A stretch of DNA of 64,000 nucleotides from a virus (IMGVR_UViG_3300009149_000011:1-64000), one strand, 5' to 3'; counted from the stretch's first letter, positions 4,837-63,812 are shown. Translations and numbers: made by a program. The notes: generated by a model from the letters alone, not told the origin.

Positions 4837-5373
4837 TTATCTTTCCATAAACACCTCTTCTCTTTCAATGTTTTCAATAGACTCAATGTTTGATCTTTTC
4901 ATCTTTCTAACCAGTATATTTGATTCATTCCTACAATGCCCAACTCTATAGTCTCCAGCCGTAACTCTAAAAGTTATTTCACCATCTCCATTAACAATAA
5001 ACCCGCCATCATTGAATGGCACATCTATATCTGGGCCTCCTACAAGACCATCATAATAAATGTTCTCTAATTCTATTTCATCTTTTTCCTCTGCGCCTTT
5101 AAGTATTTGATCATACTCTTCATTAGAAAGTTCTCTAGCCCCTCTCCATCTAGAGCAAACGTTCTTACTAATGTTTTTATCGTATCTATCGAATAATACC
5201 CAATGATATGTTACGGACCACACTAAGCTGTCATCATCCTTTTCAAAAACCTTACCGCTTCTAACTTCAAAGTCATTCTCTTCAATCTTCTTTCTTAGAT
5301 CTGCGGCTCTGGTCTCTAAATCAAGTCGATCAACCCTTAATTGATCTAATTCTTTTTGTAATTGGTCTTTCAT
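4837..5373 (-). CDS. hypothetical protein
   Basis: 178-aa ORF, N-terminal coiled coil. Confidence 0.65.
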   Translation of the reverse strand: MKDQLQKELDQLRVDRLDLETRAADLRKKIEENDFEVRSGKVFEKDDDSLVWSVTYHWVLFDRYDKNISKNVCSRWRGARELSNEEYDQILKGAEEKDEIELENIYYDGLVGGPDIDVPFNDGGFIVNGDGEITFRVTAGDYRVGHCRNESNILVRKMKRSNIESIENIEREEVFMER

Positions 5374-5466
5374 TACTTGATTTATCTTTAAATATTATTA
5401 TTTTATTAGATTCAATGCCTCTTGAAAAAATCTTATCTAATTGTTTGAAGTTTGTTTTAATTTTTT

Positions 5467-5760
5467 TCATAACACAGTTTCCCCTATTGATTCCACCATC
5501 TCTTCCACTTGTTTAATAACTTCAGGCTTTCTAAAACGAGAAGCACAAAACCCTGGCTCTACACCCTTAAGAACTCCATCGGTAAATGGTTTGTTAGTAA
5601 TTTCTACTAATAACAATCTACCTCTACTATCCCAACTTTCCACTCTACGAACAGTGTATTCCTGACCCTTTCTTGGAAGTTGATCAAAATGAGCTATCAT
5701 AACATCCACCATATCGGTGAAGTCATCATCAATACATATAACTTTATCCCCTACTTTCAT
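5467..5760 (-). CDS. hypothetical protein (KVGDKVICID family)
   Basis: Typical phage SH3-like pattern ending F...RF. Confidence 0.65.
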   Translation of the reverse strand: MKVGDKVICIDDDFTDMVDVMIAHFDQLPRKGQEYTVRRVESWDSRGRLLLVEITNKPFTDGVLKGVEPGFCASRFRKPEVIKQVEEMVESIGETVL

Positions 5761-15466: not shown

Positions 15467-15673
15467 ATGGCAAGAAAATTAGCTTCATTCACATTAGACG
15501 AGGATACGATAGTAATCCTCAATAGATACTCAGAGGAGCATAATATTAACAAGTCTAAATGTGTGGAGATGCTAATTAACAATCATTTGTCTGAAAATAA
15601 ATCGGACAACATTTCAGGGATGACTTTAGAAGACATTGCCGAAAAGGTAGCTGAAATTCTAAGCAAAAAATAA
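15467..15673 (+). CDS. ribbon-helix-helix (CopG-like) regulator
   Basis: SFTLDEDTIVILNRYSEEHNINKSKCVEMLI. Confidence 0.7.
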   Translation: MARKLASFTLDEDTIVILNRYSEEHNINKSKCVEMLINNHLSENKSDNISGMTLEDIAEKVAEILSKK

Positions 15674-15677
15674 ACTA

Positions 15678-15950
15678 TTAATCTTCGTAAGGATCTGGAT
15701 CATCATCAGTTCTTAATGATAACCTAAAACCTTCACTACACTCTTTATGAGTTCTATAGCTTTGGAACTCTGGGTAAAATTTATGACTATCATGCGGATC
15801 CCCTTTTGTAATTGTACCTCCACAATGTTCACAGCCATAGTCAGCTCTCGCTCTTGTTCCAACTCCAGTAGTCTCTCCAAGATCCTCTAACATTAAATGT
15901 TCATGCGGCACTCTTAATGGCTCACGTGATATGTAGAATTGCTTTCTCAT
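15678..15950 (-). CDS. small zinc-binding protein
   Basis: CEHCGGTI.KGD...THKEC. Confidence 0.6.
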   Translation of the reverse strand: MRKQFYISREPLRVPHEHLMLEDLGETTGVGTRARADYGCEHCGGTITKGDPHDSHKFYPEFQSYRTHKECSEGFRLSLRTDDDPDPYED

Positions 15951-15979
15951 TGTCTTAACTTTATATGTATAATATAAGC

Positions 15980-16018
15980 AAAAAAGGCTCTAAAATAAAC
16001 ATTTAGAGCCTTTTTTTT
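15980..16018. terminator. bidirectional intrinsic terminator
   Basis: AAAAAAGGCTCTAAA...TTTAGAGCCTTTTTTT. Confidence 0.75.
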
Positions 16019-16701
16019 ACTTATGTAGTGATGAAATTTTACCTCTCAATACATCTTTATATTTAGCTGATTTACCAGTAACATGGTCATTAACCACGCC
16101 TTCTTTAACTCGATAGGTTCTACGTTTATCACCTCTATTCCCTGACCCAATCTGACCTTGTCTAATATTCTTTTCTTTTAGGGAATTTTCCTTATCGTTA
16201 ATCTTCTGCAGCTTTTCTTTTAATCTAATCCAGGCTTCTACCTCATTCTTTTGTCTATGCCTGGTTCCTTCTGATCTAATCATTATACCTGTTGGCAAAT
16301 GTTTGAGGATGACACAAGTTTCAACCTTGTTTACATTCTGACCTCCACTGCCTCTACTTCTAGTATAAGAACGCTCAACTTCACTTTTATCTATTTCTAT
16401 TTGAGAATGATATGAATCTTCCATCACAGCAACTGTTACTATGCTTGTATGGACTCTTCCTCGTTTTTCTGTTGGTGGTATTCGGTGCCAGCGGTGACCG
16501 CCAGACTCATTCTTAAAGAATTTCTTTGCACCTTTGCCAGTTATGCTAAAGGCATACTAAGCCGTCTCTGTTGATCTCGGATGAGATAGAGAATGAATTG
16601 TTTTGACATGCTTTCTTGTAGATATTAGCCATATCTTCGACTAATAACTTGGAATCAGTTCCGCCCTCGGCAGCCTTGATTTCTAGGGTAATCTTTTCCA
16701 T
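16017..16701 (-). CDS. prfA: peptide chain release factor 1-like (lacks domain 1), expressed via +1 frameshift at CTT-TAG-C (16551-16545)
   Basis: Frame 0 from ATG 16701: MEKITLEIKAAEGGTDS...GLVCL*; +1 frame: SITGKGAKKFFKNESGGHRWHRIPPTEKRGRVHTS (PxT motif) joining GSGGQNVNKVET and RGDKRRTY; 227 aa. Confidence 0.88.
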
Positions 16702-21855: not shown

Positions 21856-22884
21856 TTAATTTAATTTGGATACTTTATATAGACTGATTACTGGAGAGTC
21901 TGATCTAATTTCTTCAATATACACATCTCCATCTTCTATATATACTTCTTTTAGTATATTTTTTAAATTACTTGGAAATAATTCAGATGTAAATTTAGCT
22001 GTTTTACAAAGAGTAACATTATACCCAATAAGACTTAAATCTTGAAGCGTGTTTATGTATGGCAGCTTAACACTTTCAACTAAATCAATTACACTTAATC
22101 CTATATAATGTTTAGCATAATATTTATTCCATTCACTCAGGGAAACATATGTAGTGTTTGGGTTTTTAAATAAATGATTCCATGAAATTTTATCTTGAAT
22201 ATATTCAAAATCATCTTCAGACCAATTAGAAAGATCAGATTTCATACACACTATTTTCCAATTGATTTGTATTCCCTCATCTTCTAGTTTTTTAAACTCT
22301 TCAAGACCTAAACTAGCTACCTCTGACATAAAAAAAGCATCCCAATTTACTTCATGTTTAAAATCTATTAGAAACTGAAAATCTTTTGAAGTGAAGTTCT
22401 GATACCTACTTATCTCCATCCATTTAAGATCCGTGAACTTATCAGCATGTCTCTCTAATTTTTCGATACCTGTTTGCACAAACCCTCTTCCAGCTTGGAA
22501 CTCATACTCTTTTTCATTACTAACATGTTGTAACCTGCCATCATTATCACTAACCAATTCAGTTCTATCAAAGTTGTTAGAATTTATAAAAGCTGTTCTA
22601 AGTTTTGGATGTACTTCATGTTCTAAAAACTCTTTTGTAAATGTTTGTCTGTTTTCTGGCAATTCTGGATCCGTCTCTGGGAATAAATCACTATATAAAG
22701 CATTCATTTCCTCTAGCTCAATTTGTACTTGAACATCAGGCTCAGTATCTTCAATATCCATAACTGGATCAATATGAAGCCTTCCACCTATTATTCTCCA
22801 CTCACCTTCTACATTTAATAATGAATTAGGCAACCCTGACGCTTCTATATCATCAAAAGTTATTGTTTTTATACTTTCTTTCAT
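21856..22884 (-). CDS. tryptophan-repeat protein
   Basis: Repeats LKWMEIS, VNWDAF, INWKIV, ISWNHL. Confidence 0.65.
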   Translation of the reverse strand: MKESIKTITFDDIEASGLPNSLLNVEGEWRIIGGRLHIDPVMDIEDTEPDVQVQIELEEMNALYSDLFPETDPELPENRQTFTKEFLEHEVHPKLRTAFINSNNFDRTELVSDNDGRLQHVSNEKEYEFQAGRGFVQTGIEKLERHADKFTDLKWMEISRYQNFTSKDFQFLIDFKHEVNWDAFFMSEVASLGLEEFKKLEDEGIQINWKIVCMKSDLSNWSEDDFEYIQDKISWNHLFKNPNTTYVSLSEWNKYYAKHYIGLSVIDLVESVKLPYINTLQDLSLIGYNVTLCKTAKFTSELFPSNLKNILKEVYIEDGDVYIEEIRSDSPVISLYKVSKLN

Positions 22885-22923
22885 TAATCATACAATAATG
22901 AAAAAAAATGAAAAAGTAAAATG

Positions 22924-22999
22924 TAGTTCCAACTGGATTCGAACCAGCGACCTCTTGCATGTCAAGCAAGCGCTCTAGACCAGACTGAGCTATGGAACT
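22924..22999 (-). tRNA. tRNA-Val(GAC)
   Basis: Cloverleaf; CTTGC TT GAC AT GCAAG. Confidence 0.9.
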
Positions 23000-23006
23000 A
23001 TTTTAG

Positions 23007-23081
23007 TGGGCCCCTTCGGGATTGAACCGAAAACCTCTTGATTATGAGTCAAGTGCTCTAAACCAATTGAGCTAGAGGCCC
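23007..23081 (-). tRNA. tRNA-Ile2/Met(CAT), probably lysidine Ile2
   Basis: GGGCCTC acceptor; CTTGA CT CAT AA TCAAG. Confidence 0.85.
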
Positions 23082-23091
23082 TAAAATGGGA

Positions 23092-23826
23092 TTAATCCCA
23101 ACACCAAGAGTTTCTTTCGTAATCGTGAAAGTTTGCTAAAGAATCGTCATAATCATACTGTTTCATATTATTCATGACTTTTTTATTAGACGCTCTCCTG
23201 GACCTTGTGTATATGCACAGGGTTCTTTTTGGATAAGTTCTCCATTCATATTTTCGAGACTTATCCCAGTAACAAGAATCAATATGATTATCTATATAAT
23301 CATCTTCACTAATTAGATCTGGTTGAATCTCCTTATAATGGGTAGCATAGCATCTTTCGAAGTATCTATCCCAATACCATATAGGAACATTGCAATCGCA
23401 CCATCCACGTCCCCAGTAATCTAAGAATTCAGGAGGAGAGAACCATCGTTGAACTTCAGGTCTCAAGTGCTTATATGTTTCTATATCAATACCATAAGAA
23501 GAACCATAATATCCGCACCAAGGAGTATACTCTTGCCAATTGCGTAACCCTGTAACCGTACAAACGCTTCCATTAGACCTATATCCAAGTGATTTATTTT
23601 TAGACCAACATTTTCTTTCTATTAGTGAAACTACTTCCTCTATAGTGTCGGCATCGGCCCTATTAGCAATATCGCTTCTTAAACTAAGTCTAATGTACCA
23701 ACCGTGAGGTTCAGGCTCATCTAACTCAGCCCAGCAATTGTTCCTCTGGATATCGTTGATCTCATCTTGCCTTTTCTTCAAAGATCTTATCTTTGAATCA
23801 AGTTCATTGTATTTGTTTTTTCTCAT
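23092..23826 (-). CDS. aromatic/basic hypothetical protein inside tRNA operon
   Basis: 244 aa, preceded by a leader ORF and a start-sequestering hairpin. Confidence 0.7.
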   Translation of the reverse strand: MRKNKYNELDSKIRSLKKRQDEINDIQRNNCWAELDEPEPHGWYIRLSLRSDIANRADADTIEEVVSLIERKCWSKNKSLGYRSNGSVCTVTGLRNWQEYTPWCGYYGSSYGIDIETYKHLRPEVQRWFSPPEFLDYWGRGWCDCNVPIWYWDRYFERCYATHYKEIQPDLISEDDYIDNHIDSCYWDKSRKYEWRTYPKRTLCIYTRSRRASNKKVMNNMKQYDYDDSLANFHDYERNSWCWD

Positions 23827-23850
23827 TTTTCGATTTATTAAGTGAATTAC

Positions 23851-23883
23851 TTAATAGAATCGAAGCTTTAATAGGTTTTTCAT
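23851..23883 (-). promoter_or_regulatory. leader peptide MKNLLKLRFY with translational-attenuation hairpin
   Basis: TTCGATTCTATTAAGT...ACTTAATAAATCGAA hairpin ends 2 nt before ATG 23826. Confidence 0.55.
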
Positions 23884-24063
23884 AGGATTAAATTTAAAGT
23901 TGTACTATTTTTTATACATTAAATCTTTCTGTGGTCTAGCAATCAAAGTGCCTTTCACAATTTTAAATGTAGCTTTTTTACCAAAAGGCCTGCTGCTCTT
24001 TTTTCTTTTTGTTCTTACTCTCTTTCTCATATACATATATAGTTTATAAGATTTAATTTTTAG

Positions 24064-24137
24064 TGCTCCCGACAGGACTCGAACCTGTGACCTCTTGCAT
24101 GTAAGGCAAGCGCTCTTCGCAACTGAGCTACAGGAGC
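24064..24137 (-). tRNA. tRNA-Val(TAC)
   Basis: CTTGC CT TAC AT GCAAG. Confidence 0.9.
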
Positions 24138-24228
24138 TGGTATGAAGGTATCAATCGCTTTCCTTCATCTTTAAAACCTTACAAACTATTACGATTGTAT
24201 TATCGATAAGGTTACTGTATTCTAATTC

Positions 24229-24330
24229 TGGCACCAAATCGATGGAGTTGAACCACCTAGAATTGTAAAGAGAAATGCACTCGTTTACGCTAGAGAACCG
24301 CTCCCAGTATTGACCCAAAACTAGTTTGAT
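24229..24330 (-). ncRNA. atypical tRNA-like RNA with encoded GCCA end
   Basis: T-arm GGTGG-TTCAACT-CCATC, imperfect 8-bp acceptor, long extra arm, no standard anticodon loop. Confidence 0.45.
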
Positions 24331-24338
24331 TACTAGCA

Positions 24339-24408
24339 CAAATTAACCTGCTTTCGAAACAGGGACCTTCATAGTTCACAGACGCTCTTCCACCTGAGCT
24401 ATTAACCC
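24339..24408 (-). tRNA. degenerate tRNA (anticodon arm disrupted)
   Basis: GCTC/GAGC D-arm and CCTGT-TTCGAAA-GCAGG T-arm intact. Confidence 0.5.
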
Positions 24409-24423
24409 GCCTAAGTAATCTCG

Positions 24424-24496
24424 TTGTTCCACCAGGGCTCGAACCTAGACTCTTATCGACCAAAACGATACGTGTTGCCAATTACACCATAGAACA
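24424..24496 (-). tRNA. tRNA-Gln(TTG)
   Basis: TATCG TT TTG GT CGATA. Confidence 0.88.
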
Positions 24497-24570
24497 ATTT
24501 ATACAAATGTACAAAAGTTTAATCACAAACTCAAGTACGATACACAATATGTCAAATAACTATTTACTTG

Positions 24571-24645
24571 TTACCCTGGAGGGACTCAAACCCCCGACCC
24601 GATCCTTCGTAGGGAACCGCTCTAATTCAACTGAGCTACAGAGTA
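24571..24645 (-). tRNA. tRNA-Arg(ACG)
   Basis: CT ACG AA loop; variant T-loop TTTGAGT. Confidence 0.8.
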
Positions 24646-24647
24646 AT

Positions 24648-24872
24648 TTATATTATACAATATGATTTAGCCCACTTTCTAACAGAATTATCACTAACTC
24701 CATACTTTTTACCAACTGCAACATAAGATGTATCTTTTAACATATTTTCCAGCTCTTCCTTTGAAGGTCTCTCCACTTTTCTTATGTCAAGTCTTTCCAC
24801 TCTCAAACTTCTCCCATCAATCTTTTCTATTAAACCAATACTACCTTTGCAATGAAATATGTCAAAGAACAT
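24648..24872 (-). pseudogene. C-terminal HTH remnant of an HNH homing endonuclease
   Basis: RPSKEEL...VGKKYGVSDNSVRKW with no nuclease domain. Confidence 0.5.
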
Positions 24873-24879
24873 TATTTTG

Positions 24880-24953
24880 TAGAGAAGATGGGATTCGAAC
24901 CCACGACCAGCTGCATATAAGGCAGTTGCTCTACCTGACCGAGCTACTTCTCC
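24880..24953 (-). tRNA. tRNA-Ile(TAT)
   Basis: ACTGC CT TAT AT GCAGC. Confidence 0.8.
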
Positions 24954-24959
24954 ATGTTG

Positions 24960-25033
24960 TTGTTCCGATCAGACTCGAACTGATAACCTCCTGGATCAAA
25001 ACCAGACGCACTACGCAATTGTGCTACGGAACA
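24960..25033 (-). tRNA. tRNA-Gln(TTG), second copy
   Basis: TCTGG TT TTG AT CCAGG. Confidence 0.8.
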
Positions 25034-25039
25034 ATGTTG

Positions 25040-25113
25040 TTGGAATGGAGGGTCACGATCCCTCGACCTCTGACGTATCAGATCAGCGCTCTAACCAACT
25101 GAGCTACATTCCA
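25040..25113 (-). tRNA. tRNA-Ile(GAT)
   Basis: CTGAT CT GAT AC GTCAG; odd T-loop ATCGTGA. Confidence 0.8.
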
Positions 25114-25121
25114 ATTTAAAC

Positions 25122-25370
25122 CTAGTCCAATTGGACTAGGGTATTTTCTTTCAAGGCTTGTCTGATCCATTTCATGAAACCAGAGGCTTTGTCTTTAGCG
25201 TTGATGGTGCCGTTTCCAATATCTTCTCTCGGTACAAAGAATTGATATGTGTTACCATCTTTTGCTTTTACATTGTAGTAAAAGAACCCCGCTCTATAGT
25301 GATCAAATTTCACCATAGTGCCTACTACTAAATTTTTTACTTGCTCATTGAACTCTTTTAAGTTTTCCAC
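25122..25370 (-). CDS. hypothetical protein
   Basis: F..YR.G..YY...Y.F.VP..DIG.G...MKWIR conserved phage pattern. Confidence 0.7.
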   Translation of the reverse strand: MENLKEFNEQVKNLVVGTMVKFDHYRAGFFYYNVKAKDGNTYQFFVPREDIGNGTINAKDKASGFMKWIRQALKENTLVQLD

Positions 25371-25387
25371 TTTATTAATTGTTTACG

Positions 25388-25461
25388 AGCGAAAGACGGG
25401 CTTCGAACCCGCGACCTCAACGTTGGCAACGTTGCGCTCTACCAAACTGAGCTACTATCGC
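25388..25461 (-). tRNA. tRNA-Gly(GCC)
   Basis: CAACG TT GCC AA CGTTG; U73. Confidence 0.88.
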
Positions 25462-25472
25462 GTTAATTACCT

Positions 25473-25700
25473 TTACTCTTTTAAACTCATTTGCCACTGA
25501 GTTTTTCTGTGTCGCTTCCATGATCTCTCTAGGTTATTCCATTTTGAATTCACAGTTTCCATTCCATGAGGGAAGCAATAAGGGCATCCACCCATTTTTT
25601 CGTAATTGTGAATTCTCGACATCTTAACGTTTGAGAACTTTGGCGGTAATAATGGGAATCCTTCCTCATCAATACCGAACGCTTTTTTTTCTTTTTTCAT
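25473..25700 (-). CDS. small basic CxxC-xxH protein (RSWKxxRKTQW)
   Basis: CPYCFPH...RSWKRHRKTQW. Confidence 0.7.
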   Translation of the reverse strand: MKKEKKAFGIDEEGFPLLPPKFSNVKMSRIHNYEKMGGCPYCFPHGMETVNSKWNNLERSWKRHRKTQWQMSLKE

Positions 25701-25720
25701 CTTCTAGATTAGGTTTGGTG

Positions 25721-25756
25721 TTACCTAAAGAAGAAGTGTTTTAATAGTTTTTTCAT
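25721..25756 (-). promoter_or_regulatory. leader peptide MKKLLKHFFFR with translational-attenuation hairpin
   Basis: CTTCT..TTTAGGT/ACCTAA..AGAAG hairpin abuts ATG 25700. Confidence 0.55.
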
Positions 25757-25782
25757 TTTACATTTATTTAACATTTAACTTG

Positions 25783-25853
25783 AGCTACGAGTGGCGCTTG
25801 CATCCACGACCTCCTGAATCTATCAGGCGCTCTACTATCTGAGCTATCCTAGC
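25783..25853 (-). tRNA. atypical tRNA, shortened anticodon arm centred on AGA
   Basis: CCTGA TAGAT TCAGG; T-loop TGCAAGC. Confidence 0.55.
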
Positions 25854-25855
25854 TT

Positions 25856-25985
25856 ATTATTTTGCTTTTGTCTCCATCTTTTACGACCAATATTTCTTTT
25901 ATCCTTACCATTTCCTGCATTTAAAATGCCATAATTAGGAGTCAATGAATGACAATTTGGACAAAGCAATCTCGGATTTTTGACC
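25856..25985 (-). pseudogene. HNH endonuclease C-terminal remnant
   Basis: Reads NPRLLCPNCHSLTPNYG..NAGNG. Confidence 0.6.
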
Positions 25986-26009
25986 AATATTTCAAAGAAC
26001 AATAGTTTG

Positions 26010-26083
26010 AGCGGGTGGACGGGATCAAACCGACTCTATTCCAACTTGGAAGGCTGGCGCACCATCACTTATGCGTCACCCGC
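26010..26083 (-). tRNA. tRNA-Gly(TCC)
   Basis: CCAGC CT TCC AA GTTGG; variant T-loop. Confidence 0.8.
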
Positions 26084-26089
26084 TTATAT

Positions 26090-26257
26090 TTACATAGTCG
26101 AAAGCTTCTCTCTCAACTCTTTAATCTGCCTTTGGTGCGAAGCTACATTTATCTCCGCAATGTAAGAGGTTTTTTTAGTTAGTGAAGCAATCATTTCCTT
26201 CTCCAACATCTCGATTCTCTCTTCGAGCTTCTTTTTCTTTTTTTCTATTTTCCCCAT
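26090..26257 (-). CDS. 55-aa coiled-coil protein (not in ORF track)
   Basis: MGKIEKKKKKLEERIE...KLSTM*, first ORF after attenuator 1. Confidence 0.55.
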   Translation of the reverse strand: MGKIEKKKKKLEERIEMLEKEMIASLTKKTSYIAEINVASHQRQIKELREKLSTM

Positions 26258-26261
26258 AACG

Positions 26262-26412
26262 CAAAAAACCCGAATCCTGTTAGGGATTCGGGTCTGTTTG
26301 TTTAATGTTTTTATACAATCAACTAGAAGACATACGAATCCCGTAAGGTGAAAATCACCTGCCCTTGGCCTTGACCAATTATGCGAGATATTATGTTTGT
26401 CATTCTTTTCAT
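26262..26412 (-). promoter_or_regulatory. transcription attenuator 1: leader MKRMTNIISRIIGQGQGQVIFTLRDSYVF* (26323-26412), antiterminator and terminator
   Basis: Terminator ACCCGAATCC/GGATTCGGGT plus U-tract (26262-26294); GGGATTCG in the leader complements its 5' arm. Confidence 0.8.
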
Positions 26413-26496
26413 TGTCTTTATAAATATGTAAGTTTTTCTATTATTCAAATACTAACGATACAAACATACAAATTGTTTCGTTACTTGTCAAGTATT

Positions 26497-27063
26497 TTAT
26501 GATAAATCTTTAATATAATTTTCAAAAGTGCTCCTGTGAGTGAATTTAAGCCCTTCTTTTATTAAAGGAATTACCTTTTTATGTTTATCTGAAATAATTG
26601 GCCTCTCTATAAATTTTCTATTTGGATTCTCAACTCTATAGCATAACATATCGCTTAAATAAGCGCAAGCCTCTGCGACCAAATCTATTTTATCATCTGG
26701 AAACACATCTTCTAAAGCTTTTTCCATTTTCTTCTGTTTCTCAAGTATGAAATAAAATATGTATTCTATTTGCTTAGATGACATATACTTTCCATTCCTC
26801 TTGCTAACTCTTGTAACCACGGGAAGCATAACCATAGCTGTTTCTTTGTCTAAATTGGTCCCTCCGCCAATCGGTAGAGGTTTATGTGCAAATTCTGGAT
26901 CATCAGAAAATTTAGACATTAAAAAAGCCATTTTTTCCAAATTGGAGGTGGTTATACGTCTAGATTTTATATCATCTATAACATACAAAAGTCCAGACCT
27001 TTCCCAGGATAACGTAGGGTCCAGATCTGGAATTATATAAAACCTCTTTCTAGTTTTATCCAT
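26497..27063 (-). CDS. hypothetical protein
   Basis: 188-aa ORF. Confidence 0.65.
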   Translation of the reverse strand: MDKTRKRFYIIPDLDPTLSWERSGLLYVIDDIKSRRITTSNLEKMAFLMSKFSDDPEFAHKPLPIGGGTNLDKETAMVMLPVVTRVSKRNGKYMSSKQIEYIFYFILEKQKKMEKALEDVFPDDKIDLVAEACAYLSDMLCYRVENPNRKFIERPIISDKHKKVIPLIKEGLKFTHRSTFENYIKDLS

Positions 27064-27104
27064 TATAGTTTTTCAATTTTCTGATCTATACCTTGCACTT
27101 TATA

Positions 27105-27983
27105 TTACTTAGCGTCTAAATGTTTCATAACAAGAGTTAACTTAGGCATCAATCTCTCAATAATATCAGCTTTAGTATGTTCTTCCGTATTTCTTTTAGG
27201 GCAAGAGAAAATCTTAGCTCCTCTGTTCCCATATTTCCCTGTATGCCTCTTATCTGATTTATACATTCTGAATCCTAATCCGTCATCAACAGAGTCTATT
27301 AGAGTAAATGCGAAATCATCGGCAAACCACCTATCTTTACTATAAGTGTATTTTACATCAGGGATTGCATCAGAAACTTCTTTTAACAAATCTGATCCAT
27401 ATAAAGGAGTGGTTTTCAAATACCTTAACACGTCTATGTTGTAGTCCCTATTCACGTAATTACCATCTGTATTAAACCAACAGAACATAATACTACTCCA
27501 TTTACCGCCTATATCCGCTTTAACGGAAATGCCATTCCATGTGGAAACTTCAACTCTATGAGTTTTACAACCCACCTTTCCAAGAGCATCATAACATTTA
27601 TTGACAGTTTCCTCACTCCCATAAACTTCTAATCTTTCATATCCATTCTTAAGAAGTCCGAAATTATAGTTCCAATAAGTCCCCACTGGATACAAAGAAT
27701 TGATCTTATCAAGAAGATCTTTCTCTCTAGCGCTAGTGTAATCCTCTTTGTCTATCGTAAAGAATTCCCCTTCAGGACTCTTGCATAGATACTGAGTTTC
27801 ACTAAGCTCTTTGTCTATAACACAGCCTTTGCCGTATCTCCATTGAGAAAAAGAATCATCATCAAGTTTTACCGCTTTGATTTTTGACACTAGATCTTCA
27901 TCATGATTTTTGAATACAGTGCGTCCACTTTCCTCAATGGTGGATACAACTGTTATATTGTTATTTTTTTCTAAAGTCTCCAT
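27105..27983 (-). CDS. hypothetical protein
   Basis: 292-aa ORF. Confidence 0.7.
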   Translation of the reverse strand: METLEKNNNITVVSTIEESGRTVFKNHDEDLVSKIKAVKLDDDSFSQWRYGKGCVIDKELSETQYLCKSPEGEFFTIDKEDYTSAREKDLLDKINSLYPVGTYWNYNFGLLKNGYERLEVYGSEETVNKCYDALGKVGCKTHRVEVSTWNGISVKADIGGKWSSIMFCWFNTDGNYVNRDYNIDVLRYLKTTPLYGSDLLKEVSDAIPDVKYTYSKDRWFADDFAFTLIDSVDDGLGFRMYKSDKRHTGKYGNRGAKIFSCPKRNTEEHTKADIIERLMPKLTLVMKHLDAK

Positions 27984-38121: not shown

Positions 38122-38673
38122 TTAATTTTGTTTTGCTATAAAACTATCTCTGTATTTATTTACTCGCTCTGATATCAAATTTTTATATCTACTATGCATA
38201 TACATATGATGTGTAGGGCATAGTGGAATCAGATTATCTGGAGAGTTATTTTTTCTATCCTCATCATAATGATGAACATCTATAATTTTATCTTCTTCAC
38301 AAATAACACATTTTTTCTTATGATAATAAAAGCAAGTACTTCTATAAGCGTCATCTTTCCAATTAGGGTGATTAACTCCAGATCTATAATACGTATTAGC
38401 GCAAGAATGAGAACAGGTCACTTTTTCTTTAAGGCCTCCCAATCTTGTTTCAAATTTACCTAAACATATTGGACACTCTTTTTGGATTATGTCATATTTA
38501 ATATTTCTCTTAGATAACCCGCCATCAAAATGACTAACGTCCAACGAAAGGTCTTCAATCATTTTGGTGATTTTTCTTCGCCCTCCACCCCCAGTTACAT
38601 ATCCCATCTTTCTACATACATCGGATTTGCTTTTTGAACTTTTGACAGCTTCAATTAATTTTTCTTTATTCAT
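38122..38673 (-). CDS. HNH homing endonuclease
   Basis: CVICE...DVHHYD.DRKNN...NLIPLCPTHH. Confidence 0.88.
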   Translation of the reverse strand: MNKEKLIEAVKSSKSKSDVCRKMGYVTGGGGRRKITKMIEDLSLDVSHFDGGLSKRNIKYDIIQKECPICLGKFETRLGGLKEKVTCSHSCANTYYRSGVNHPNWKDDAYRSTCFYYHKKKCVICEEDKIIDVHHYDEDRKNNSPDNLIPLCPTHHMYMHSRYKNLISERVNKYRDSFIAKQN

Positions 38674-38762
38674 TATTTTTATTATAAATAATCAAATAAA
38701 AGTATACCACACATCTTTTGAATATGATTGTCCAAAAGTTGTAAGGTGTACCTAGTTTTATG

Positions 38763-38858
38763 TCAGGAGTGGGGGATTCGAACACCCGAACCACACTAAC
38801 TGTGCGCAGTTATCCGTGTCCAAAACGGATGCCTTAAACCTTACTCGATCAATTCCTG
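38763..38858 (-). tRNA. tRNA-Pro(TGG) with long variable arm
   Basis: TCCGT TT TGG AC ACGGA; extra arm AACTGCGCACAGTT; mismatched T-stem. Confidence 0.6.
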
Positions 38859-39003: not shown

Positions 39004-39090
39004 AGAAGCAGACTGGACTCGAACCAGCGATCTTCGGCTTGGAATACGCAAATGCTTTTCCGACGCTCTATCCAACTGAGCTACAACCTC
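39004..39090 (-). tRNA. tRNA-like gene with ~15-nt insertion in the anticodon loop
   Basis: Normal D/T arms; TCGG[AAAAGCATTTGCGTA]TTCCAAGCCGA. Confidence 0.5.
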
Positions 39091-39418: not shown

Positions 39419-39492
39419 TGGACACATACGGGCTTCGAACCCGTGACTCCTGGGTGCAAACCAAGTGTGATAGCCAACTTCACCAACGGCCC
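39419..39492 (-). tRNA. tRNA-Ala(TGC), divergent copy
   Basis: TGG TT TGC AC CCA; mismatched acceptor. Confidence 0.65.
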
Positions 39493-40019: not shown

Positions 40020-40585
40020 TTACACTTTAATGATTCCAGCATGTATCTCTCTATGACAATTAGAACACACTAAAATACATTTATCAAGTTCTTTTTTTAC
40101 TTTATCCCAAGAGTAACAATAACCTCTATGGCTTAAGGAAAAATCTTTTTCATTAGGATCAATGTGGTGAAACTCTAAAGCTCCGATATACTTGTCATAT
40201 CCACAACACTGACATTTTTCACCTTTATAATCCACGGCCATATCTTTAACTTTTCTCCTTCTTTTTTGTACAGCTTCGATTCCCCTCTTTCTTTTTTCTT
40301 CCAGAGAATAGGTTTTATTTTTTTCAGCTGAATATAATTTGTAACAGTACTCCTGCTAAATCCAAATTTTTCAGCCACTTTATTACTTGACCCACATTCA
40401 TCATAATACCTTTGCATATCAGAAATTGTATTTTCATCTATTCTTAAATCAGGAGCTCCAATACCAGCTTTTCTGCAATGATGAGAGACAGTGGATTTAG
40501 AACACCCTAATTCTTCGCTTATCTCTTTGTAAATCTTACCTTGTTTTCTTAGATCAATAATCTTACCTTTTAGAACACTTGTCAT
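40020..40585 (-). pseudogene. HTH-HTH-HNH homing endonuclease split by a frameshift near an A7 run (~40318-40324)
   Basis: HTH part (40175-40585) and CQCCGY...LEFHH...CSNCHREIH part (40020-40241) join if one A is added. Confidence 0.75.
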
Positions 40586-40642
40586 ATAAATTAATTTTTA
40601 TTGTTAATCTAAAAAGACGAAGGTCTAAAGTAAATAGTTTTG

Positions 40643-56749: not shown

Positions 56750-57110
56750 TTTAAAGACCTGAGAGGAGGCTCCGCCTCCCCTAAAGTCTCGAATTCTTTT
56801 AATTGAATGAATGCTGATTAGGCAGCCATTGCAAGAGATTCTGTGTTTACGTTTATTTCGCCGTTTACTTGTTTTGATCTAACTCTTTTCACTCCGTTCA
56901 TCATGACCAGTCAAGTGCCAGTTAATCCCCATTTAAACTCTTTACCTTAAAGTTTGATTTCTCAGGGACAATAAGGAATCAGATAACTGTTTCCATGTCA
57001 TAGTTACGTTTCCGAAGAAAGAGGCTTTACTAGACCTAGTGGAGAATTGGGGAGTTGAACCCCAGTCCTGTGAAACTTCTCGAAACAAATACGAACGAGT
57101 AGCGATCCTG
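56750..57110 (-). ncRNA. ssrA: circularly permuted two-piece tmRNA; tag (A)GEINVNTESLAMAA
   Basis: Acceptor piece ...GGAC-TGGGG-TTCAACT-CCCCA-ATTCTCC-A (ends 57040) precedes coding piece GGGGATTAACTGGCACTTGAC (starts 56930); G3:U70; tag ORF 56818-56862. Outer ends are approximate. Confidence 0.85.
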
Positions 57111-62254: not shown

Positions 62255-62265
62255 TTTAAAGTTAG

Positions 62266-62338
62266 AGGGAGTGATGGGGCTCGAACCCACGACCACGGTG
62301 TTAGAGACCGCTGTTCTAACCAGCTGAACTACACTCCC
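62266..62338 (-). tRNA. amber suppressor tRNA(CTA), Trp-like body
   Basis: GGGAGTG/CACTCCC acceptor, GCGGT CT CTA AC ACCGT, GTGGG-TTCGAGC-CCCAT; own promoter motif 62351-62375. Confidence 0.88.
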
Positions 62339-63649: not shown

Positions 63650-63655
63650 AACTTG

Positions 63656-63733
63656 AGCTCCTGGAAGGGATCGAACCTCCGAACTTTCTAAACCTTGCGG
63701 GGTTTAGCGCTTATACCAACCAGCCACAGGAGC
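63656..63733 (-). tRNA. atypical tRNA, extended anticodon arm with loop CCGCAA
   Basis: CTAAACC CCGCAA GGTTTAG; U73. Confidence 0.6.
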
Positions 63734-63739
63734 ATTTTG

Positions 63740-63812
63740 AGCGAAGGGGTAGAATCGAACTACCGTACTATAGGTTTGCGGACCTATCGCCTAACCACTC
63801 GGCAACCTTCGC
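63740..63812 (-). tRNA. Cys-like tRNA with 8-nt anticodon loop TCCGCAAA
   Basis: ATAGG TCCGCAAA CCTAT; U73. Confidence 0.68.

Follow-up and report, generated by a model that had tools for sequence, protein, structure and literature searches.

Leader-peptide attenuation units predicted ahead of codon-matched tRNA gene clusters in phages

The window analyzed here, a 64,000-nucleotide stretch of viral DNA (IMGVR_UViG_3300009149_000011:1-64000) from the 149-kb record of a giant uncultured phage, carries a tRNA gene cluster preceded by a short open reading frame (ORF) and an intrinsic terminator, which together probably make up a leader-peptide (ribosome-mediated) attenuator that would sense the supply of charged cognate tRNAs and feed back on tRNA transcription. 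Attenuation of this type is described for amino-acid operons, whereas full-text literature searches found no published description of leader attenuation for tRNA genes. An earlier note, made from the sequence alone, had proposed a trp/his/ilv-type attenuator at this site, and the core of that proposal is supported by every comparative test that was run (sister leaders, relatives, co-variation and distant phages). The features are listed in Table 1.

Table 1. Features of leader 1, the tRNA cluster behind it (cluster 1) and the sister units in the same record.
Feature	Coordinates	Strand	Details
Promoter-like site	26491-26461	minus	TTGACA, 17 nt, TATGTTTG; fits the Bacteroidota-type -7 motif TAnnTTTG
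Leader ORF (leader 1)	26412-26323	minus	29 codons and TAG stop
Control run (codons 7-20)	26394-26353	minus	Ile x5, Gly x3, Gln x3, Val, Arg(CGC), Ser(TCT) x1
Small hairpin	26359-26347	minus	Spans the end of the control run, with 4 nt between it and the antiterminator arm that follows; from the nascent-transcript MFE
Antiterminator arm (region 2), GGGATTCG	26342-26335	minus	ORF nt 71-78, 10-17 nt before the stop
Intrinsic terminator	26295-26263	minus	5' arm 26295-26284 (region 3 = 26290-26283), loop, 3' arm 26277-26266 (region 4), T run to 26263
55-aa ORF	26257-26090	minus	First gene 3' of the terminator; no assigned function
tRNA-Gly(TCC)	26083-26010	minus	First tRNA of the putative gated unit; Rfam 37.4 bits; ARAGORN only at relaxed threshold
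Degenerate tRNA-like element	25853-25783	minus	Rfam 37.8 bits; no ARAGORN call even at 70% thresholds
tRNA-Gly(GCC)	25461-25387	minus	ARAGORN and Rfam
tRNA-Ile(GAT)	25113-25039	minus	ARAGORN and Rfam
tRNA-Gln(TTG), first copy	25033-24959	minus	ARAGORN and Rfam
tRNA-Ile(TAT)	24953-24879	minus	ARAGORN and Rfam
tRNA-Arg(ACG)	24645-24570	minus	ARAGORN and Rfam
Internal promoter-like site, TTG-N-TACATTTG	24534-24504	minus	Just upstream of the second tRNA-Gln
tRNA-Gln(TTG), second copy	24496-24423	minus	ARAGORN and Rfam
Two odd tRNA-like elements	24409-24229	minus	Distal part of cluster 1
tRNA-Val(TAC)	24137-24063	minus	ARAGORN and Rfam
244-aa ORF	23826-23092	minus	Distal part of cluster 1
tRNA(CAT), Met or Ile2	23081-23006	minus	ARAGORN and Rfam
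tRNA-Val(GAC)	22999-22923	minus	ARAGORN and Rfam
Unit 2	41292-41039	minus	Promoter-like site 41292-41262; leader ORF 41209-41096; antiterminator arm GGACTTGG 41134-41127; terminator 41071-41039
Leader 3	78915-78814		Ser/Arg/Trp/Met codons, matched to its own tRNA cluster

The leader ORF, whose limits and codons 7-20 are exactly those given in the earlier note, begins with an ATG 49 nt downstream of the promoter-like site, in a frame that is conserved in relatives. Its start context is A/T-rich, lacks a Shine-Dalgarno sequence and has AAA as the second codon, resembling the long ORFs of the same phage, only 5% of which have a Shine-Dalgarno-like motif; the ORF is likely to be translated. Under standard wobble rules, 13 of the 14 codons of the control run can be decoded by anticodons of the downstream cluster, the exception being TCT, which bears out the match originally proposed. 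The background frequency of the cluster 1 codon set is 0.24, and among approximately 130,000 open windows in the six frames of the 149-kb record, this run is the sole 14-codon window that scores 13. The note had paired TCT with an ‘AGA tRNA' at 25783, an assignment that is not supported: the Rfam alignment of this degenerate element shows an anticodon loop of 5 nt, an aberrant T-loop and a mismatch in the acceptor, and the orthologous leaders lack the Ser codon. The rest of the tRNA list stands, with the qualification that Gly(TCC) is recognized by Rfam and escapes ARAGORN at all but the relaxed threshold; this gene has clear orthologs directly 3' of the leader in relatives. Small ORFs are interspersed among the tRNAs located between 25461 and 24570. 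That one leader gates the whole 3.4-kb cluster, as initially suggested, is not supported, given the internal site with a promoter-like motif of the same type, from which transcripts of the distal half may also arise and so bypass the leader.

The segment after the codon run had been described as complementary to the 5' arm of the terminator, and it is indeed the exact 8-nt complement of CGAATCCC within this arm (p = 0.015 when the ORF was shuffled 5000 times by dinucleotides); the two pair in the MFE structure of a transcript lacking the terminator 3' arm. The terminator itself has a 12-bp stem (26295-26266; hairpin of -18.4 kcal/mol) that starts 27 nt past the stop codon. The layout of the promoter-like site, TTGNNN-N17-TAnnTTTG, also appears upstream of leaders 2 and 3 and of the tmRNA/Met cluster, with 21 such sites in the record. 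A hairpin immediately upstream of the arm, possibly a pause hairpin, is found in eight of nine units (seven in this record and two relatives, plus the distant phage L027), whereas in another distant phage, L026, the corresponding stretch forms one larger folded structure. This hairpin does not pair with the arm and no 1:2 anti-antiterminator structure sequestering the arm was found in the nine units, so that an untranslated leader would read through, unlike the trp leader. For the full-length leaders of the window, the terminator state is 7–11 kcal/mol more stable than the antiterminator state; hence, readthrough must be kinetic.

Both the direction of the switch and its physiological signal are inferred, and the trigger might be anticodon nucleases, starvation or simple feedback. 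Transcription from the host-type promoter would yield a transcript of about 190 nt, on which a ribosome would start the 29-codon leader and encounter a central run calling for Ile, Arg, Gly, Gln and Val tRNAs, the species encoded downstream. When a charged cognate tRNA is in short supply, the ribosome would stall within the control run, leaving the antiterminator arm free to pair with the terminator 5' arm once the latter is made, so that no terminator forms and the polymerase enters the 55-aa ORF and the tRNA genes. With fast decoding, the ribosome would arrive at the arm and at the stop codon during synthesis of the terminator, the long-range pairing would be blocked, the local terminator hairpin would form and transcription would end. 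Because the products are the very tRNAs under test, such a circuit would amount to negative feedback on tRNA supply. Depleted or uncharged host tRNAs would likewise open the switch. Amino-acid starvation would open it too, although added tRNA would be of no help under these conditions.

The arrangement is not confined to a single cluster. Leader 2 is rich in Asn, Ala, Tyr, Pro and Asp codons, and it fits its own tRNA cluster, as leader 3 does. For Arg, the correspondence extends to the isoacceptor: leader 1 has CGC and its cluster Arg(ACG), whereas leader 3 has AGA four times and its cluster Arg(TCT). When leaders are scored against clusters in a 5x5 table, the diagonal is the row maximum throughout (13, 10, 14, 12 and 13). 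With the codon set of either cluster 1 or cluster 5, the top open 14-codon window across the six frames of the 149 kb is the leader directly upstream (13/14 and 14/14, respectively), and among the nine ‘short ORF plus terminator' units in the record, two leaders score 13–14 and the remaining seven score 8 or less. The codon-level enrichment of leader 2 is not unique within the genome: it ties for the top at 10/14 under strict wobble and reaches 12/14 with four-way U34 reading, with one region alone scoring higher (13). The leader 2 antiterminator arm stands out in shuffles (p = 0.003), and the arms taken individually yield p = 0.002–0.015. In the sister units, the first tRNA lies 11–24 nt past the terminator (15 nt for the tRNA-Pro of unit 2), and therefore, room for a separate promoter is lacking.

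Two relatives, in which the 244-aa marker protein is 54–59% identical, retain leader 1 ahead of Gly(TCC) and leader 2 ahead of Pro(TGG). The differences between their control runs are either synonymous or exchange one served amino acid for another (Gly to Val, Leu to Ile, Asn/Tyr, Asp to Ala), and a few ortholog codons are unserved by the cluster (AAT, CTA, AGA and AAC). The relatives carry the same sequence in the 3' half of leader 1 and in its terminator; for leader 2, they share the arm and the terminator stem but not the ORF tail. Across lineages, the antiterminator arm has changed in step with the two arms of the terminator, GGGATTCG/CGAATCCC here corresponding to TGGATCGA/TCGATCCA in the relatives for leader 1, and GGACTTGG/CCAAGTCC to GCTTGGGT/ACCCAAGC for leader 2. 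The same design is present in L026 and L027, two more distant giant phages, and there the leaders proved predictive: the Arg codons of the L026 leader and the Lys codon of the L027 leader led to Arg(ACG) and Lys(TTT) tRNAs, respectively, that the default scan had overlooked. The antiterminator is present in the nascent MFE structure, before the terminator 3' arm, in all nine units from uncultured phages, and the geometry is uniform (arm at ORF nt 71–91, terminator stem 20–30 nt past the stop). Leader 1 and phi4:1 unit A end in TAG, and the other eight leaders (from this phage and four uncultured giant phages, the two relatives and the two more distant ones) end in TAA. The proposed link of the UAG stop to an RF1/suppressor circuit is thus not supported: TAG does not serve as a general sense codon in the record, and a ribosome reading through the leader 1 TAG would meet a TAA after only three more codons.

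The cultured Cellulophaga phage phi4:1 (KC821632) has a unit at 87065-87133 and another that is annotated as the hypothetical protein gp075. In the phi4:1 leader, codons 4–14 (11 of 11 consecutive) all correspond to the downstream set of seven tRNAs (Pro, Glu, Gln, His, Leu, Leu and Arg). The phi4:1 tRNA array shares with the window the TAnnTTTG promoter, a tRNA-matched short ORF and a terminator adjoining the first tRNA; it differs in having a shorter leader of 22 codons that is nearly leaderless, has no annotated regulatory function and shows no detectable sequence similarity to the leader of the window. The antiterminator arm of unit A is weak and does not appear in the nascent MFE structure.

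Among the enterobacterial amino-acid attenuators (trpL, hisL, leuL and pheL among them), the ilvGMEDA leader contains Ile, Val and Leu codons and the thr leader contains Thr and Ile codons. The phage units share with this class a promoter-proximal short ORF whose regulatory codons cover several amino acids, an intrinsic terminator ahead of the first gene under control, and an antiterminator that uses the terminator 5' arm and is placed where a ribosome near the ORF end can block it. They differ in that tRNAs and small ORFs, rather than biosynthetic enzymes, would be regulated, the molecule that would be sensed is the product, the arm is not sequestered by a 1:2 structure and a Shine-Dalgarno sequence is absent, and the codon list is mixed, spanning nearly all anticodons of the block, instead of a tandem repeat of one codon. 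The Rfam leader families match below the gathering threshold (Thr_leader RF00506, 23.1 bits versus 55, with a 59-nt insertion; Phe_leader RF01859, 15.1 bits versus 55). With tRNAs as the putative regulated genes, the unit is classed as a variant outside the described leader families. The pheST attenuator, in which a leader peptide with Phe codons controls an aminoacyl-tRNA synthetase operon, is likewise leader-peptide attenuation of a component of the translation apparatus; it differs in controlling a synthetase, in responding to a single amino acid and in being cellular rather than viral.

The same attenuator could answer to another signal, namely amino-acid starvation or charging, as in ilv, thr and his, with the tRNAs being part of a general stress or early-infection program and no feedback on tRNA supply or response to tRNA-cleaving defenses. 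A stalled ribosome cannot tell a missing from an uncharged tRNA, as established for the trp and his attenuators, and the unit also holds ORFs without assigned function. This alternative nevertheless appears unlikely: every leader lists the species (for Arg, the exact isoacceptor) encoded behind it, and tRNA blocks with matching leaders are of no evident use for amino-acid sensing because added tRNA does not relieve starvation. Still less probable, to the point of being hard to sustain, is that the short ORF and terminator are a free-standing small-protein or small-RNA gene, with constitutive terminator leak or other promoters supplying the tRNAs and no regulatory meaning in the codon match. 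The combination of a promoter, a small ORF and a terminator does look like a monocistronic unit, and good folding of the 206-nt region (z = -3.5) and the internal promoter-like site speak for this too, but there are three paralogous units with unrelated peptides, each fitting its own cluster, the in-set substitutions fit selection for codon class and not for the peptide, the arms co-vary with the terminators and the sister units leave no promoter space before the first tRNA.

Direct sensing without a ribosome merits even less credence. T-box RNAs use one specifier codon and the T-box motif to bind uncharged tRNA directly and, like the phage unit as proposed, tie tRNA status to the terminator/antiterminator decision, so anticodons pairing with the codon run and bound tRNA stabilizing the antiterminator can be envisaged. 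Against this, the specifier and T-box motifs are absent from the unit, the T-box family RF00230 gave no match at E values up to 10 in 26200-26520 or up to 1 in 22000-27200, the run lies in frame within an ORF that has both start and stop codons and keeps its frame in all units, and the synonymous third-position changes in relatives fit ribosomal codon reading rather than a fixed RNA-binding sequence. An accidental ORF beside an ordinary terminator is the least credible of these explanations, with a probability close to nil: the 14-codon run and the codon set were picked after the sequence had been viewed, yet leader 1 is the unique genome-wide maximum, and the pattern is replicated in two other clusters, two relatives, two distant phages and phi4:1.

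Leader-peptide attenuation of tRNA genes would acquire a wider meaning if, in giant phages of Bacteroidota, tRNA blocks each placed behind a codon-matched leader act as a block-wise sensor and repair system, switched on when the host tRNAs of a block are cleaved by anticodon-nuclease defenses or are too scarce for the codon usage of the phage, and switched off by the block's own products. This generalization is offered tentatively, as a possibility that we consider more doubtful than the attenuator itself. Should it be correct, viral tRNA genes would be a regulated counter-defense and homeostat rather than constitutive helpers of codon usage.

The leaders and tRNA clusters of this IMG/VR virus record (149 kb, 34.5% G+C, ~46% complete, with the window as its first 64 kb) lie on the minus strand throughout. 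Leader 1, the short ORF ahead of tRNA cluster 1, is preceded by a promoter-like motif of the Bacteroidota type, and its start context (A/T-rich, with AAA as the second codon and without a Shine-Dalgarno sequence) is like that of the ordinary genes of the phage. Codons 7–20 read exactly as in the earlier note, which had described a leader peptide made of the codons that the tRNAs of the cluster decode. The terminator is followed by a 55-aa ORF, tRNA-Gly(TCC), a degenerate tRNA-like element and then the tRNAs Gly(GCC), Ile(GAT), Gln, Ile(TAT), Arg(ACG), Gln, Val(TAC), a CAT tRNA and Val(GAC), with small ORFs scattered between them. Between tRNA-Gln and tRNA-Val lie two further tRNA-like elements (24229–24409, minus strand), which ARAGORN detects only when its thresholds are relaxed and to which it assigns ‘anticodons' of two bases; these are possibly remnants of tRNA genes. 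The 188-aa protein encoded upstream of leader 1 has no homolog other than a copy of 99% identity on L002, a contig that is essentially the same as this one and offers no comparative information.

Features of the leader units (window coordinates unless stated otherwise)
Feature	Position	Strand	Description
188-aa ORF	end at 26497	-	upstream neighbour of leader 1
Promoter-like site	26491-26461	-	TTGACA, 17 nt, TATGTTTG
Leader 1 ORF	26412-26323	-	29 codons, after promoter-like site
Antiterminator arm GGGATTCG	26342-26335	-	inside leader 1 ORF; exact complement of 26290-26283, terminator 5' arm
Intrinsic terminator	26295-26263	-	12-bp stem and T run, -18.4 kcal/mol
Promoter ahead of leader 2	41292-41262	-	same layout as that of leader 1
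Leader 2 ORF	41209-41096	-	37 codons; codons 4-24 mainly Asn, Ala, Tyr, Pro, Asp
Leader 2 arm GGACTTGG	41134-41127	-	complementary to CCAAGTCC in terminator
Cluster 2	41023-38039	-	Pro, Asn x2, Asp, Ala x2, Tyr x2, Pro
Leader 3	78915-78814 of record, beyond window	-	16 consecutive Met, Ser, Arg(AGA), Trp codons

The match between leader and cluster is far from a chance coincidence, as can be seen when the anticodons of each cluster are converted to the set of codons read and every open 14-codon window in the six frames of the whole record (~130 000 windows) is scored against this set. For the cluster 1 set, with a codon frequency of 0.24, a single window reaches 13, and this is the leader, at 26394. 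Among the nine units in the record that combine a short ORF with a terminator, as identified by a simple finder, the leaders score 13–14 and the remaining seven 8 or less. An 8-nt complement to the terminator arm appears in 1.5% of the dinucleotide shuffles of the leader 1 ORF.

Two parallel units are present in the same record. Leader 3 is the unique genome maximum for its own codon set (14/14), and the tRNAs behind it are Ser (three genes), Phe, Met, Arg(TCT) and Trp; the choice of the Arg codon tracks the anticodon, with CGC ahead of the Arg(ACG) cluster and AGA ahead of the Arg(TCT) cluster. Leader 2, the terminator of which ends 15 nt before tRNA-Pro, has a strict-wobble score of 10/14, the joint top but not unique in the genome; when U34 is allowed to read four-codon boxes in full, its score is 12/14, with just one other region reaching 13. 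The cluster 2 tRNA at 39419–39492 is Ala(TGC). The same cluster contains two ORFs for HNH-type endonucleases (38122–38673 and about 40060–40586, minus strand), the former with over 300 metagenomic homologs, many of these on 200–350 kb contigs that also bear tRNA arrays, and two over-long tRNA genes (38762–38858 and 39004–39090, minus strand; 97 and 87 nt, the anticodon of the second being uncertain) that possibly carry an insertion or intron. No leader of this type precedes cluster 3 (a permuted tmRNA and two Met tRNAs) or cluster 4 (CTA suppressors). The tmRNA is circularly permuted according to Rfam (RF04321, 51.2 bits; 56818–57099, minus strand), lies directly 5' of two long tRNA-Met(CAT) genes and has a promoter-like site ahead of it (57154–57124), without a leader ORF. 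Two CTA tRNAs (amber suppressors) and two tRNAs with enlarged anticodon loops (cgca, according to ARAGORN) are located at 62265–62338 and 63655–63812 (minus strand) and at record positions 64291–64364.

Homologs of the 244-aa ORF located in cluster 1, with 59% and 54% identity, were found on a 240-kb ENA contig and an 88-kb marine contig. Both relatives possess a syntenic cluster 1 behind a 34-codon leader (core Ile, Gly, Gln, Val) with a terminator and, as found by walking upstream, cluster 2 behind a 39-codon Asn/Tyr/Ala/Asp/Pro leader. When ~30 kb of each relative are scanned, the top window for the cluster 1 set is leader 1 in both, and leader 2 ranks first in one and second in the other. 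Between the two relatives, the substitutions in the control run, i.e. the codons matched to the cluster tRNAs, are synonymous or exchanges inside the served set, the 3' half of leader 1 and its terminator are identical in sequence, and leader 2 retains the arm and the terminator stem with a different ORF tail. Such a pattern is what selection on codon class in the 5' half, and on RNA structure in the switch elements, should produce. Between lineages, the antiterminator arm and both the 5' and the 3' arm of the terminator change jointly, and each antiterminator arm is unlikely on its own (p = 0.002–0.015 in shuffles).

The TAnnTTTG promoter layout is absent in the relatives (L003 5570–5600 and L007 7420–7450). 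Their 5' leader instead contains an A/T-rich hairpin, and a motif with CGTT recurs ahead of both leaders; the promoter type, or the host, may be a different one. The 240-kb relative also encodes a short release factor-like protein (L003 19810–20427; 205 aa, PCRF and RF-1 domains) ~10 kb past cluster 1. In its leader 2 region (L022 4816–5665), the terminator is directly followed by the 5' part of a tRNA-Pro up to the anticodon loop, an HNH ORF (5042–5596) and a complete tRNA-Pro, an arrangement that may represent an interrupted or intron-bearing tRNA gene.

The same correspondence extends to more distant phages. Homologs of an HNH endonuclease from cluster 2 led to additional giant-phage contigs, in two of which the arm lies inside the ORF and the antiterminator is present in the nascent fold. 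One leader (L026) is rich in Phe, Val, Ile, Pro and Arg, with Pro, Ile, three Phe and Val among the tRNAs behind it; the other (L027) is a mixed ‘checklist' that includes His, Cys, Trp, Met and Lys, with a mixed tRNA block behind. The leader codons predicted an Arg(ACG) tRNA in the former and a Lys(TTT) tRNA in the latter, and both genes, missed by the default scan, were then found. When leaders are scored against clusters in a 5x5 table, the diagonal entry is the largest in each row. The 205-kb L027 contig also carries a full-length GOLLD RNA (RF02032, 330 bits; 15657–16063, plus strand) that adjoins SmpB and tRNA genes. In the cultured Cellulophaga phage phi4:1 (KC821632), 11 of 11 consecutive codons of a 22-codon ORF (87065–87133 of the record) match the seven following tRNAs, with the terminator abutting tRNA-Pro; the codons of a second unit, annotated as gp075, match the next tRNA block. 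No clear leader with a terminator was found in the gp076 region of phi4:1, ahead of Ser/Trp/Phe, and the automated finder detected no leader in another giant-phage tRNA region (L025), where hand inspection covered the first intergenic region. No relatives emerged from viral_contigs when it was scanned with the 188-aa protein, the terminator in its exact sequence, the alignment of the 244-aa protein and a pair of degenerate leader patterns; the 14 matches to these patterns were unrelated coding sequences, repeats or tRNAs. The 244-aa alignment had no match in metagenome_contigs, nor did the 244-aa protein in cultured phages (tblastn), and blastn of the leader against phages returned chance fragments only.

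When the transcript is folded up to the 3' arm of the terminator, the antiterminator is included in all nine units from uncultured phages. At full length, seven of the nine leaders favor the terminator state, by 1–11 kcal/mol, and two favor the antiterminator state slightly. Given these stabilities, the choice between the two must be kinetic. The arm lies within nucleotides 71–91 of the ORF, the stop codon follows 6–30 nt past the arm, and the terminator stem 20–30 nt past the stop. The switch most likely works as follows: a ribosome that is detained in the control run would leave the arm free and allow readthrough; once the ribosome has advanced as far as the arm and the stop, it would be positioned between the two pairing partners and melt the nested stems, so that the local terminator hairpin would win. 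At the stop codon, the ribosome would not extend to the terminator stem. No structure sequestering the arm was found in the untranslated leader, and the default state without leader translation is probably ‘on', which differs from the trp attenuator.

The proposed mechanism is the same as in the multivalent leader peptide attenuators (ilv, thr), but both its sequence and the kind of genes that it regulates exclude leader 1 from the described leader families. Its score against the Rfam Thr_leader model is 23 bits, below the membership threshold of 55; this weak match is driven by the terminator and was rejected as evidence of membership. Nor is the element a T-box. Several ancillary claims of the earlier note are not supported. 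For the element at 25853–25783, proposed to be an AGA tRNA reading TCT, the Rfam alignment shows an anticodon loop of 5 nt, and ARAGORN does not call it; the orthologous leaders lack the Ser codon (TCT) that it was meant to serve. The TAG stop, taken as a link to RF1 and suppressors, is shared only with the 22-codon unit of phi4:1, the other eight leaders from uncultured phages ending in TAA; suppression of TAG in leader 1 would add just three codons before a TAA. Genome-wide use of TAG as a sense codon was rejected as well, the gain in frame coverage being no larger for TAG than for TGA. Finally, leader 1 was thought to gate the entire cluster, but a promoter-like site at 24534–24504 may drive the distal tRNAs independently.

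What phages gain from tRNA genes has long been asked, and the proposed explanations include codon usage compensation, replacement of degraded host tRNAs and evasion of tRNA-cleaving defences, PARIS among them (PMC11464382; PMC12409363); recent papers on such defences, and on the phage tRNAs that counter them, provide the context for the leaders. A search of the full-text literature found no description of leader peptide control of tRNA genes. The presence of the design in a cultured phage, phi4:1, makes it accessible to bench experiments. If these switches indeed read the decoding speed at the served codons, the phage would be measuring the tRNA supply and adjusting to it block by block, and leader peptide attenuation would reach beyond metabolic operons, to the translation apparatus and also to viruses. 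In addition, the leader sequences would be a direct readout of the decoding steps that the phage treats as limiting.
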